Position numbers and translations under genes: made by a program. Of a DNA stretch of 64,000 nucleotides, positions 50,641-57,482 are shown one piece after another; positions within the stretch are counted from its first letter, which is position 1; every line of letters starts with the position of its first letter. A model generated the notes under the pieces. That model saw only the letters and a list, made by a program, of their open reading frames with translations, was not told the DNA's origin and searched no databases. The DNA is from Escherichia coli (GTDB lineage Bacteria > Pseudomonadota > Gammaproteobacteria > Enterobacterales > Enterobacteriaceae), in NCBI RefSeq assembly GCF_003334785.1, contig NZ_QOWV01000001.1; one strand, written 5' to 3'.

Positions 50641-50672
50641 AAGTTAAAATGCCGCCAGCGGAACTGGCGGCT
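50641..50672 (-). terminator. trp operon terminator (trp t)
   Basis: gccgccag-cggaa-ctggcggc hairpin with U-rich run on the minus strand immediately after the trpA stop. Confidence 0.85.
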
Positions 50673-50678
50673 GTGGGA

Positions 50679-51485
50679 TTAACTGCGCGTCGCCGCTTTC
50701 ATCGGTTGTACAAAAACTTTCAGTGCCGCCAGCATTTTCTCTGGCTCATTAATATGTTGCTCGATGATTTTAACAATGGCCGAACCAGAAATCGCGCCCG
50801 CAGCTCCTGCATCAATCGCTGCTTTTACCTGATCCGGGGCGGAAATACCAAATCCCTGCAATGGAGGTGCAGCGTTGTACTCTTTCAGCTTCGCAACCAG
50901 ATGATTGAGGGGTAACGCGGCGCGGTTTTCTGCGCCGGTCACGCCTGCTCGTGACAGCAAATAGGTGTAACCACGACCGTAAGAGGCTATCTGGCGCAGC
51001 AGGTCGTCATCGGCATTTGGCGGGCAGATGAAGATAGGTGCGACATTATGACGCAACGCGGCCTGGCGGAAGGGCGCGGACTCTTCAACTGGCACATCGG
51101 CAACCAGCACCGAATCGACGCCGACTTTTTCGCACTGGGCATAAAACTCATCAATGCCTTTGTTAAACACCAGATTGGCATACATCAACAGGCCAATGGG
51201 AATGGTCGGGTGTTTCTGGCGAATCAGTGCCAGCATTTCAAAACATTGTGCCGGAGTCACACCTGCCGCAAAGGCGCGCAGAGTGGCGTTTTGAATCGTC
51301 GGGCCATCCGCCAGTGGGTCGGAGAAGGGGATACCTAACTCCAGCGCGTCAGCACCGGCTTCAATTAGCGTATCGATAATTTTCAATGACTGCTCAATGC
51401 CCGGATCACCGAGCGTGACGAAAGGAACGAATGCGCCTTCTTTGCGCTCCTTCAACTGGGCAAACAGAGATTCGTAGCGTTCCAT
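50679..51485 (-). CDS. trpA: tryptophan synthase alpha subunit
   Basis: 268-aa ORF; sequence recognised. Confidence 0.97.
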
Positions 51486-52678
51486 CAGATTTCCCCTCGT
51501 GCTTTCAAAATATCGTGAACGGTGAAGATGTCTTTATCGCCGCGACCGGAAAGGTTAACCACCAGTAGCTGCTCTTTATCCGGGTTTTCGCGCATCATTT
51601 TCAACGCATGGGCCAGGGCGTGGGAGGATTCCAGCGCCGGGATGATCCCTTCGTGCAGGCACAGCGTTTTGAAGGCTTCAAGGGCTTCATCATCGGTAAT
51701 AGACACGTAATCAGCGCGTCCAGTGCTGTTAAGATACGCGTGTTGTGGGCCGACAGACGGGAAATCCAGTCCGGCGGAGATGGAGTAAGATTCTTCAATC
51801 TGCCCGTCTTCGGTTTGCATCATCGGCGCTTTCATACCGAAATAGATACCCACGCGACCATGTTTTAGCGGTGCGCCGTGCTCGCCAGTTTCGATACCGT
51901 GACCACCTGGCTCCACACCAATCAGGCCGACGTTGGTTTCATTGATGAAATCAGCAAACATGCCGATGGCATTCGAACCGCCGCCAACACAGGCGATAAC
52001 GGCATCCGGCAGGCGACCTTCTCTTTCCAGAATCTGCGCTTTGGTTTCTTCGCCAATCATCCGCTGAAACTCACGCACAATGGTCGGATAAGGATGCGGG
52101 CCAGCTGCGGTGCCCAGCATATAGTGCGCGGTTTCGTAACTACCGGACCAGTCGCGCAGCGCCTCGTTACAGGCATCTTTCAGCGTCGCGGAACCGCTAT
52201 GCACCGGGATCACTTCCGCACCCATTAAGCGCATACGAAAAACGTTAGGCGACTGGCGTTCAACGTCTTTGGCACCCATATAAATACGGCATTTCAGGCC
52301 GAGCAGGGCGCTGGCAAGGGCCGACGCCACGCCATGCTGACCGGCACCGGTTTCGGCGATGATTTCGGTTTTACCCATCCGCTTCGCCAGCAACGCCTGC
52401 CCCAGCACCTGGTTAGTTTTATGCGCGCCGCCGTGCAGCAAATCTTCACGCTTGAGATACAGCGTGGTGTTCGTCCCGGCTGTAATGTTCTGGCATTTGG
52501 TCAGCGCGGTTGGACGCCCGGCATAGTTTTTCAGCAGGTCGTTGAACTGAGCCTGAAATTCAGGATCTTTTTGCGCACTGACAAAAGCTTCTTCCAGCTG
52601 GCGCAGAGCAGGCATCAGGATTTGTGGCACGTACATGCCGCCAAACTCACCAAAATAGGGGTTAAGTAATGTTGTCAT
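51485..52678 (-). CDS. trpB: tryptophan synthase beta subunit
   Basis: 397-aa ORF; 1-nt overlap with trpA. Confidence 0.97.
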
Positions 52679-52689
52679 TGTTCCTTTCC

Positions 52690-54051
52690 TTAATATGCGC
52701 GCAGCGTCTGGAAAACCGAGGCCAAAAGACGTGCGTCTTTGATGCCCGGTTGCGACTCTACAGCAGAATTAAAATCAAGTCCGGCGCAGCCGGTTTGTGC
52801 CGCTTCCACGCAGTTATCTGCGCCTAAGCCCCCCGCCAGCAGAACGTTGCCAAGCGATTGACCATTTAATAGTGACCAGTCAAAACGTTGCCCGCTTCCA
52901 CCCTGGCCGTTGTCTAAAACATATTTATCAACGTGCTGAAACTCGCGGGCGGGCAGGGTTTCACCGACGCTTAATGCTTTCCAGATGGCAACATGTGCTG
53001 GCAGAGCTTCACGCAGCGTATCGATATACAGCTGTTCTTCATTACCATGCAGTTGCACTGCCGCCAGCGATAACACCTTAGCTTTGTCCACCACATCGGC
53101 AATATCGTGATTGCGGAACACGCCAACATACTGCAACGGTGCCGCAGCCATCACTTCCTGCGCCTGTTCAACGTTGACGCAACGCGGTGATGTCGCAACA
53201 AAAATCAACCCACCGTAAATCGCGCCCGCGTCATAAGCTGCTTTAGCATCTTGCCCACGCGTCAGGCCACATACTTTATTCTCACCCAGCAACACCCGGC
53301 GCACGGCGGCGTGCAAATCGTCATGGGCCATCAACGCCGAACCAATCAGAAAACCGTTAGCGAAGTGGCTTAACTCGCGCACCTGAGCGTAAGTATTGAT
53401 GCCGGATTCGCTGATTACCGTCACGTTGTGCCCCAGTTTCGGCGCAAGCTCGCGGGTACGGTTGAGATCAATCGACAAATCACGCAGATCGCGGTTGTTG
53501 ATGCCAACGACCTTTGCTCCCAATGCAATGGCGCGCTCCTGTTCCTCTTCATTACTGACTTCGGTCAGCACCCCCATCTCCAGACTGTGAGCGACGGCGG
53601 CAAGCTGGCGATATTGGTCGTCATCCAGTACTGAAAGCATTAATAAGCAGGCATCGGCCTGGTAATAGCGCGCCAGATAGATCTGGTAAGGGTCGATAAT
53701 GAAGTCTTTACATAAAATCGGCTGCGGGGCGATTTGGCTGACGATGGGGAGGAAATTAAAGCTCCCCTGAAAATATTTCTCATCAGTCAGCACCGAAATT
53801 GCCGAAGCGTAATGTTTATAAATGGCGGCAATGCGTGCTGGATCGAAATCATCACGGATCACGCCTTTTGACGGCGACGCTTTCTTGCACTCCAGAATAA
53901 ACGCCGTGCGCGCACCCTGTAGCGCATCATAAAAATGTCGCGTGCTCGGCTGAACCTCATTCTGAAAACTGGCCAGCGGTTGCTGCTGTTTGCGGGCTTC
54001 TACCCAAATCGCCTTGTCTGCGACGATTTTCGCTAAAACGGTTTGCATCAT
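52690..54051 (-). CDS. trpC: bifunctional indole-3-glycerol-phosphate synthase / phosphoribosylanthranilate isomerase
   Basis: 453-aa ORF. Confidence 0.96.
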
Positions 54052-55647
54052 TTACCCTCGTGCCGCCAGTGCGGTGACTCTGTCGTAAGCGGAACCACTG
54101 CGCAGTACCTCAAGAACGGTTTGCGCATTGGCTTGCAGATCTTCATGGCCATGCAGGCGCATTAACATGGCGACGTTCGCAGCGACGGCTGCTTCATGGG
54201 CGGCGTCGCCTTTACCTTGTAACAAACGTGTTAAAATGTCACGGTTTTCTTCCGGTGTTCCGCCTGCCAGTTGCTCCTGGTGGTAGGGTGTCAGGCCAAA
54301 GTCTTCTGCGGTGAGCTGATAGCTTTTAATTTCGCCGTCATGCAGTTCGGCAACGATTGTCGGCGCGTGTAATGAAACTTCATCCATCCCGCCGCTGTGC
54401 ACCACCGCCGCGCGTTGATACCCCAGCACGCGCAAGGTTTCGGCAATCGGCAGCACCAGTTCCGGACTATAAACACCAATTAACGCCAGCGGCGGATGCG
54501 CCGGGTTAATCAATGGCCCCAGCACATTGAACAGGGTGCGGGTTTTCAGTTGCTGGCGAACCGGCATCGCGTGGCGGAATCCGGTGTGATACTTCGGCGC
54601 AAAGAGGAAACATACACCTAACTCATCCAGCGCCTGGCGCGATTTATCGGCGTTCATATCAAGATTAATACCGAACGCCGCCAGCAGATCGGACGAACCA
54701 GATTTACTGGAGACGCTACGGTTGCCGTGTTTCGCCACTTTCAGCCCACAGGCCGCGGCGACAAACGCACTGGCGGTAGAAATATTGATACTGTTGCTGC
54801 CGTCACCGCCAGTACCGACGATATCAGCAAACAGATAATCCGGGCGCGGGAACGGCGCTGCGTTTTCCAGTAGCGCGGTTGCTGCCCCGGCGATCTCGTT
54901 CGGGTGCTCACCGCGAATTTTCATGCTCACCAGCGCCGCCGCCAGTTGTTCCGGCTTCAGCTCGCCACGCACCACCACTGAAAACAGCTGGTGGCTTTCT
55001 TGTTGGCTAAGCGTCTGCGCCTGATACAGTTTTTCCAGAATCGGTTGCAGCGTGTTGGCTGGCTCTAGTTTCTGCTGCGCCCAGGCCAGCGTTTGTTCCA
55101 GCAGGCGAGCGCCCTGGGTGGTGAGAATGGATTCCGGATGGAACTGGAATCCACAAACGCGATCCGCATCGTGACGTACTGCCATCACCATGCCATTAAA
55201 ATGGGCGTTGATGGTTAAACCGGCCGGAATGTTACTGCCAACCAGCGAGTGATAACGCGCCACCGGCAGCGGGTTTGTTAATCCGGCAAACATCGCCTGA
55301 CCGTCATGTTCAATGCTGGAGGCTTTACCGTGGAGAATTTCGCCCGCCTGACCGACATAGCCCCCGTAAGCTTCGACAATCGCCTGATGTCCGAGGCAAA
55401 TGCCAATAATGGGCAGCTTGCCACGCAAGCGGGTGAGGAGTTCCGGCATACAACCGGCTTCGCTCGGCACACCGGGGCCAGGAGAAAGCATCAGCACCGG
55501 ATTGCTCATGGTCGCCAGGCGTTCAATTAAGGTTTGCGCCGGAATATGGTTGCGGTAAATCACCACGTTATGCCCATTGCTGCGCAACTGATCTGCCAGG
55601 TTGTACGTAAAAGAGTCGATATTATCGAGCAGCAGAATGTCAGCCAT
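54052..55647 (-). CDS. trpD: anthranilate synthase component II / anthranilate phosphoribosyltransferase
   Basis: 531-aa ORF with N-terminal glutamine amidotransferase region (GICLGHQ). Confidence 0.97.
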
Positions 55648-57209
55648 CAGAAAGTCTCCTGTGCATGATGCGCGGTGGCAATAGCGCGCAGTACAGCGCG
55701 GGCTTTGTTACGGGTTTCGTCGGCTTCCGACTGCGGAACAGAATCAAGGACTACACCAGCACCCGCTTGCACGGTGGCGATACCGTTTTCCACCAGCGCC
55801 GAGCGGATCACAATGCAGGTGTCGAGATCGCCATGCGCGGTGAAATAACCTACCGCGCCGCCGTAGCTGCCGCGGCGACGACCTTCCGCCTCGGCAATTA
55901 ACTGCATAGCGCGTACTTTCGGCGCACCGCTTAACGTCCCCATATTCATACAGGCGCGATAAGCGTGCAGGGCGTCAAGATCGTGACGCAGTTCGCCGAC
56001 TACGCGAGAGACGAGGTGCATCACATAGGAATAACGGTCAACTTTGGTGAGATCGGCGACGTAGCGGCTGCCGGGGGTGCAAATGCGTGCCAGATCATTA
56101 CGGGCGAGATCAACCAGCATCAGATGTTCAGACAGCTCTTTATGATCGGTACGCATTTCCAGTTCAATACGGCTGTCGAGATCTCTGTCCAGTGAACCAT
56201 CGGCGCGACGACCGCGTGGGCGTGTTCCGGCAATCGGGTAGATCTCAATCTGGCGGCTGGTGGCATCATACTTGAGCGAGCTTTCCGGCGACGCGCCAAA
56301 TAGGGTGAAATCATTATCCTGCATAAAAAACATGTACGGGCTGGGATTACTCTTTTTCAGCACGTAATAGGCCGCCAGCGGTGACGGGCAGGGCAGAGAG
56401 AAACGGCGAGATGGCACCACCTGGAAAATTTCTCCAGCGCGAATCGCTTTTTGCAACAAACGCACTACGCCACCGAACTCTTCATCGCTCTGATTACATT
56501 CACAACGCATATGCGGCACGGAAACCACTGGCAGCGGCGGCGCGGCTTCGGTCAGTTGCTGACGTAGTTCGTTCAGGCGAGCAGTGAGACGTTGTTTTTC
56601 TTCTTCATTCGGAGCAAACAGGCTGGCCTGAATACGGGTGCTTTTTTTCTGATGGTCAATCACCATCAGCGTTTCAGCGAGATAAAAACAGAAATCAGGG
56701 CAGTTATTTTCCGCTGACAGTTGCGGTAAATCTTCAAATCCCGCCACAAGGTCATAAGAGAACAGGCCGCCGAAGAACATGGCTTCTCGTTCTTCCTTCG
56801 GTACATTCAACAGATTCTGCAATAAACGGAAAGCGTCAAAAACCGAAAGGGAGCATAAGCGGGCGTCTTCATCCAGCAGTGGACTGACAGGGGGGAAGCG
56901 CAGCACACGGCAGTTTGGTGATTGTTCACTTTCCACACCCGCAGGCAGGGCGTTATCCAGTAGTGCCAGCAGGGCTTCGCCGTTGCCGGAAAGTGCCTGG
57001 ATTGTGACAGTGTCACCTAAAGCTGTAATGCGCAGCGCACTGTCTACCAGCAGCAGGCTTTTTAAATCATCTTTGCTGTCGATATCTGCGGATTCCAGCA
57101 GCAGCGTTGCCGGACGATCCCCACACAACTGGTGAAAAAGCGCGGTGGGATTGTCGCGATAAGCGCCTTCGCAGGTTAGCAGTTCGAGAGTCGGTTTTTG
57201 TGTTTGCAT
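55647..57209 (-). CDS. trpE: anthranilate synthase component I
   Basis: 520-aa ORF; 1-nt overlap with trpD (UGAUG). Confidence 0.97.
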
Positions 57210-57230
57210 TGTTATTCTCTAATTTTGTTC

Positions 57231-57258
57231 AAAAAAAAGCCCGCTCATTAGGCGGGCT
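57231..57258 (-). terminator. trp attenuator (3:4 terminator hairpin plus U8)
   Basis: minus strand reads AGCCCGCCtaatgaGCGGGCTTTTTTTT between trpL and trpE. Confidence 0.9.
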
Positions 57259-57300
57259 GGGTATCTGATTGCTTTACGCATGGTGAATACACTGCCCGTT

Positions 57301-57345
57301 TCAGGAAGTGCGCCACCAACCTTTCAGTACGAAAATTGCTTTCAT
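57301..57345 (-). CDS. trpL: trp operon leader peptide (14 aa, tandem Trp codons)
   Basis: minus strand atgaaagcaattttcgtactgaaaggttggtggcgcacttcctga = [14 protein letters not shown]. Confidence 0.95.
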
Positions 57346-57369
57346 TGTCGATACCCTTTTTACGTGAAC

Positions 57370-57410
57370 TTGCGTACTAGTTAACTAGTTCGATGATTAA
57401 TTGTCAACAG
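57370..57410 (-). promoter_or_regulatory. trp promoter and TrpR operator
   Basis: operator palindrome gtactagttaactagt(t)c and -35 TTGACA (tgtcaa on plus strand at 57403-57408). Confidence 0.85.
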
Positions 57411-57482
57411 CTCATTTCAGAATATTTGCCAGAACCGTTATGATGTCGGCGCAAAAAACATTATCCAGAACGGGAGTGCGCC

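Follow-up and report, generated by a model that had tools for sequence, protein, structure and literature searches.

The control region of the tryptophan operon lies on the minus strand of a 64-kb stretch of Escherichia coli DNA (the window, by which we mean the whole stretch analyzed), in the local gene order rnm-trpL-trpEDCBA-yciG. The original prediction, which left the strand unstated, had named an operator palindrome, a -35 TTGACA, a leader peptide gene at 57301 to 57345, and an attenuator at 57231 to 57258; all of these were present at those positions and intact. The control region, from promoter to attenuator, is made up as follows.

57402 to 57407, minus strand: trp promoter -35 hexamer TTGACA, read directly; exact match to TTGACA-N17-TTAACT and the same as in K-12.
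57379 to 57384, minus strand: trp promoter -10 hexamer TTAACT, 17-nt spacer from the -35 hexamer, wholly within the operator.
57374 to 57391, minus strand: TrpR operator GAACTAGTTAACTAGTAC, a near-perfect palindrome centered between 57383 and 57382.
57371, minus strand: presumed +1 of the trp mRNA, assigned from the K-12 162-nt leader (AAGUUCACG...), whose sequence the window shares.
57354 to 57358, minus strand: Shine-Dalgarno-like AAGGG for trpL (leader nt 14 to 18, 8 nt upstream of the AUG).
57301 to 57345, minus strand: trpL open reading frame, 14 codons plus stop; the identical sequence of MG1655 carries a trpL annotation here.
57313 to 57318, minus strand: tandem Trp codons UGG UGG (codons 10 and 11; leader nt 54 to 59), the sensor, at the 5' edge of region 1.
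57281 to 57318, minus strand: 1:2 hairpin (nt 54 to 70 with 74 to 91), the pause and anti-antiterminator structure.
57253 to 57298, minus strand: 2:3 antiterminator (nt 74 to 86 with 107 to 119).
57231 to 57258, minus strand: 3:4 attenuator, an intrinsic terminator with U8 (hairpin nt 114 to 134; T8 at 57238 to 57231).

The 351 bp at 57150 to 57500 were 100% identical to E. coli K-12 MG1655, with no substitution, in agreement with the original statement that neither leader nor attenuator carries a deletion. Of 5426 complete E. coli genomes, 5422 contained this 351-bp region, with a best match of at least 99% identity in 5342 of 5426 matching records, and the matching region is annotated as trpL or Trp leader region, between rnm and trpE. 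The whole 64-kb window is collinear with the hemA-to-sohB interval of MG1655 (no large indel), from whose record it differs by 31 mismatches and 2 gap openings. Between 47263 and 64000, comparison with NC_000913.3 gave no indels and three differences, two of them in trp structural genes: synonymous changes at trpE L80 and yciQ L184, and the change in trpD codon 224. The candidate identification of the window as MG1655 itself was rejected on the mismatches, the gap openings, and these three differences. Compared with the K-12 trp promoter/operator and trpL attenuator (Yanofsky's classic system; RF00513; PF08255), the control region of the window is without differences, sharing the position upstream of trpE, the 14-amino-acid peptide, the three alternative helices, and the U8 terminator; it is the surrounding strain that is not K-12.

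A trp promoter fragment can also reach a sequence record by another route. Such fragments travel on vectors, and the 351-bp query also matched nine plasmid places in the E. coli collection, so that the apparent native locus might be an expression-vector cassette carrying a cloned trp promoter and leader, or else might owe its resemblance to chance. Both readings are exceedingly improbable here: the native gene order and the collinearity with MG1655 over the full 64 kb show that the promoter sits at its native place in the chromosome rather than on a vector-derived insert, and chance is excluded by the Rfam match (E = 1e-18) together with the operator statistics.

In the native locus, the operator was returned by a repeat finder as an inverted repeat with arms of 10 nt each (57373 to 57382 and 57383 to 57392; 90% complementary), and its near-palindrome holds two symmetric ACTAG half-sites. 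Searching 100 dinucleotide-preserving shuffles of the window for GAACTAGTTAACTAGTAC, with up to 3 mismatches allowed, gave 0 chance matches. Since the -10 hexamer (57384 to 57379) falls inside the operator (57391 to 57374), which ends 3 nt before +1, operator and core promoter overlap. The two-hexamer promoter pattern alone is not rare (with up to 1 mismatch allowed, 0.39 matches per window are expected), and the significance of the trp promoter therefore derives from its position and its identity to the characterized K-12 promoter, not from the rarity of the pattern. A generic sigma-70 scan did not list the trp promoter, as TTAACT agrees with TATAAT in just 3 of 6 bases and so falls under the scan threshold; the miss was rejected as a sign of promoter absence and treated as a threshold artifact. 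The trpR gene does not lie within the 64-kb window, and its presence is assumed.

Other features were noted around the promoter. On the plus strand, a promoter-like TTCAGA-17-TATGAT (57416 to 57444) faces rnm (trpH/yciV; open reading frame from 57483) and stands back-to-back with the trp promoter, 9 nt past its -35 hexamer; chance alone would give about one match of this kind in the region scanned. Natural control-region variants outside the key elements were also seen: two public contigs that have the Val224 allele of trpD (discussed below), L128 and L129, carry a T-to-A change at locus position 1248 (window 57400), in the spacer and 2 nt after the trp -35 hexamer, and L005 and L132 differ at leader +13 (window 57359).

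With +1 at 57371, which we take from established knowledge of the K-12 162-nt leader, the trpL AUG falls at +27 and trpE at +163, giving a leader of 162 nt. Translation placed the trpL ATG at 57345 and the last base of the stop codon at 57301, and confirmed the predicted 14-codon leader with its tandem Trp codons (TGG TGG at 57318 to 57313). The locus thus holds a short leader open reading frame with near-terminal tandem Trp codons and a ribosome-binding site, and the identical 14-amino-acid product in related contigs is assigned to Pfam PF08255 (Leader_Trp). The attenuator hairpin reads AGCCCGCC-TAAT-GAGCGGGCT followed by the T-run; from 57258 to 57231 it comprises 7 to 8 pairs (7 by the terminator scan, 6 of them G-C) and then U8, and it ends 21 nt upstream of the trpE ATG, placing a terminator before the first structural gene. 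The Rfam model RF00513 (Trp_leader) matched 57324 to 57231 on the minus strand with a score of 93.1 bits, where the gathering score is 41, and an E-value of 1e-18 over the whole window. The match covers model positions 1 to 100 of 100 without truncation, and the 3:4 helix is the 3' helix of the model's consensus structure.

RNA folding of the leader had been proposed with the original prediction, and stepwise folding yielded 1:2, 2:3, and 3:4 alike. The free 162-nt leader folded at -49.8 kcal/mol (z = -3.9 against shuffles) and held 1:2 and 3:4, and the isolated helices 1:2, 2:3, and 3:4 gave z values of -2.1, -3.5, and -3.9 against shuffles. In the length series without a ribosome, 1:2 was complete when 92 nt had emerged and 3:4 appeared at 134 nt. 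When nt 1 to 69 were masked to mimic a ribosome stalled on the Trp codons, 2:3 formed once 120 nt were out (-15.6 kcal/mol at 120 to 130 nt emerged; z = -3.45 against shuffles) and was kept until region 4 was fully out, the terminator forming only then; the 3:4 fold was at -14.0 kcal/mol (z = -3.9). At equilibrium, the +1 to +141 transcript with region 1 masked still folded into 3:4 and not 2:3, because the attenuation choice is kinetic and co-transcriptional, as the classic model requires; folding over a series of lengths, as opposed to an equilibrium fold of the full transcript, is therefore the proper test of the switch. In silico, 1:2, 2:3, and 3:4 are mutually exclusive, with region 1 lying over the Trp codons.

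Conservation was assessed from one pattern scan of species-representative genomes, which returned 120 loci; after removal of Vibrio-type leaders, duplicates, and chance hits in other phyla, 57 distinct Enterobacterales leaders were aligned, including that of the window. The pairs of the E. coli structure were kept in 86% (1:2), 78% (2:3), and 94% (3:4) of cells, against 20 to 61% overall (1:2, 31 to 54%; 2:3, 31 to 40%) in controls with the 3' partners slid by 1 to 3 columns, a comparison in which the proportion of cells paired is inflated relative to the controls since the tested structure was derived from the window's own sequence. The tandem Trp codons were invariant across the 57 aligned leaders, though the search pattern required them; as the pattern fixed both these codons and the 3' arm of the terminator, the comparison across species is telling chiefly for regions 2 and 3. 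Compensatory double changes were few (1 to 4 pairs per helix), a weak covariation due in part to the same fixed elements, and in the aligned set the E. coli pairs of nt 84 to 86 with 107 to 109 were kept in only about 27 to 75% of cells. Support from alignment-based pair conservation is modest.

Classical covariation was replaced by alignment-free folding of each leader separately, which gave the clearer result. Folded one by one, all 57 leaders formed the terminator and 55 of the 57 formed the 1:2 hairpin. When region 1 was masked and region 4 left out, the 5' arm of the terminator was captured in 56 of 57 leaders, compared with 8 of 57 without the mask, and the capturing partner was the CGGGC segment directly after the trpL stop. 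The same switch logic is found in the other Enterobacterales trp leaders (Salmonella, Citrobacter, Enterobacter, Kluyvera, Erwinia, and others; 56/57), which share with the window a short open reading frame ending ..WWRT.., CGGGC after the stop, and a GCCCGC/GCGGGC terminator with its U-run, and which vary in the N termini of the leader peptides, the loop sequences, and the lower half of helix 2:3.

The element is almost certainly the native chromosomal control region of trpLEDCBA, operating at two levels, TrpR repression and ribosome-mediated attenuation, and nothing that we read in the sequence speaks against it. Our own data bear on the identity to K-12, the genomic context, and the three alternative helices with their conservation in silico; TrpR binding, the polymerase pause, and the response in vivo are taken from the literature on the identical K-12 element. 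At the first level, a tryptophan-bound TrpR dimer would occupy the palindromic operator over the -10 hexamer and exclude RNA polymerase. Otherwise, transcription would start at 57371, and the 1:2 hairpin would then form. This hairpin would hold the polymerase in a pause near +92 until translation of trpL by a ribosome gets under way. With charged tRNA-Trp plentiful, the ribosome would pass the tandem UGG codons and reach the stop, so that region 2 could not pair with region 3; 3:4 and U8 would then form, and transcription would end at about +140. With tRNA-Trp scarce, the ribosome would stall on UGG-UGG and cover region 1, and region 2 would pair with region 3 as the latter emerges; the terminator would not form, and the polymerase would read into trpE. 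We infer the termination response to charged tRNA-Trp in vivo from the identity to the K-12 element.

The same DNA may have a second output, which we judge an even call: the approximately 140-nt rnTrpL, released by the attenuator, would act in trans as a small RNA by pairing with mRNAs such as dnaA, aided by Hfq, and the 14-amino-acid peptide may also act in trans. For E. coli, a review (PMC12612679, summarizing Li et al. 2021) describes rnTrpL as destabilizing dnaA mRNA, repressing sanA, and activating mhpC. The window is identical to K-12 from +1 to +141, so the K-12 behavior should hold here, and by that identity the released +1 to ~+140 transcript would be the same molecule; the rnTrpL of Sinorhizobium meliloti differs in length (110 nt) and in targets (trpDC and sinI). 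Such a role, already published, does not compete with the cis mechanism, and would add a function to attenuation without replacing it.

The structural genes follow the leader directly on the same strand.

55647 to 57209, minus strand: trpE, ATG at 57209; 520 amino acids, intact, with one synonymous difference from K-12 at 56970.
54052 to 55647, minus strand: trpD (trpGD), 531 amino acids, intact; codon 224 is GTG (Val).
52690 to 54051, minus strand: trpC, 453 amino acids, identical to K-12.
51485 to 52678, minus strand: trpB, 397 amino acids, identical to K-12.
50679 to 51485, minus strand: trpA, 268 amino acids, identical to K-12.
50651 to 50671, minus strand: trp t, the intrinsic terminator at the end of the operon (terminator scan: GCCGCCAGTTCCGCTGGCGGC then ATTTT), 8 nt after the trpA stop.

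The original prediction had concluded from the intact leader that the trp operon is wild type. As far as the control region is concerned this holds strictly, and all five open reading frames are full length and trp t is present; it goes too far for the operon, since an intact leader alone does not show the operon to be wild type, and TrpD carries Ala224Val in a window that is not K-12. "Intact natural variant" is the more accurate description than "wild type" in the K-12 sense.

The variant codon (trpD codon 224, window 54977, minus strand) reads GTG here and GCG in K-12, E. coli C, and P21_SE1_04.20, and encodes a residue in the N-terminal helical part of the TrpD phosphoribosyltransferase domain. 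Not one of 5426 complete E. coli genomes contained the exact 81-mer around the change, and at the aligned position the solved Pectobacterium and Thermus homologues have Ala. Rarity, departure from the three genomes, and the Ala of these two homologues could be read as signs of an intact control region over an altered operon, in which Ala224Val impairs anthranilate phosphoribosyltransferase or the TrpE-TrpD complex and the strain would not be trp wild type. This is very unlikely, because the change is conservative, the position is occupied by Asp in the solved homologue 9ucw, and the exact Val224 protein occurs on at least 24 public contigs (24 by contig look-up; 21 by cluster look-up) of several backgrounds, as would not be expected of a disabling lesion. 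Over 7.6 kb, these backgrounds are separated from the window by 1 to 88 base differences. Equally hard to credit is an effect of this rare change on how the anthranilate synthase-phosphoribosyltransferase complex works or assembles, which would give the otherwise classically regulated operon a flux different from that in K-12. The occurrence of the exact Val224 protein on public contigs of several backgrounds marks Ala224Val as a rare, naturally occurring allele rather than a laboratory lesion. A reading of the three G:C-to-A:T changes that set the window apart from the panel genomes (below) as marks of a mutagenized laboratory strain with a trpD lesion was accordingly rejected as far as trpD is concerned. 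The most fitting description of the operon is intact, carrying a natural TrpD variant whose effect is probably negligible.

Elsewhere in the window, three bases differ from all panel genomes (MG1655, E. coli C, and P21_SE1_04.20), at 23131, 39466, and 54977 (the trpD change), and all three are G:C-to-A:T transitions. The first lies in the tyrT promoter (minus strand), where the G+C-rich discriminator after the -10 TATGAT reads GCGTCCC, with C in place of the T in the three panel genomes; the exact 81-mer around 23131 was found in none of 5407 matching records of complete E. coli genomes. The tyrT discriminator region mediates stringent control of tRNA-Tyr transcription, and the change could matter functionally. 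The second (plus strand) changes oppD codon 150 from CTC to CTT, synonymous for Leu. Among the rtT repeats downstream of tyrT/tyrV (22427 to 22514), one RtT copy holds a cluster of nine differences from MG1655 and E. coli C, although the stretch matches P21_SE1_04.20 exactly; this looks like an exchange between the four tandem RtT copies reported by Rfam. A tandem array of three rdlD-type antitoxin RNAs occupies 4785 to 5920 (plus strand), opposite three Ldr toxin genes, and several of the differences from MG1655 are concentrated there, among them a single-base indel.

Judged by its sequence, the trp element is the classic E. coli promoter-operator-leader-attenuator, already known and ordinary, and no open question is made testable by finding it here. 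Its value lies only in annotation quality control, for the strand, coordinates, and intactness of the best-studied attenuator in biology; it shows, too, that the source of the window is an E. coli resembling K-12 without being K-12.
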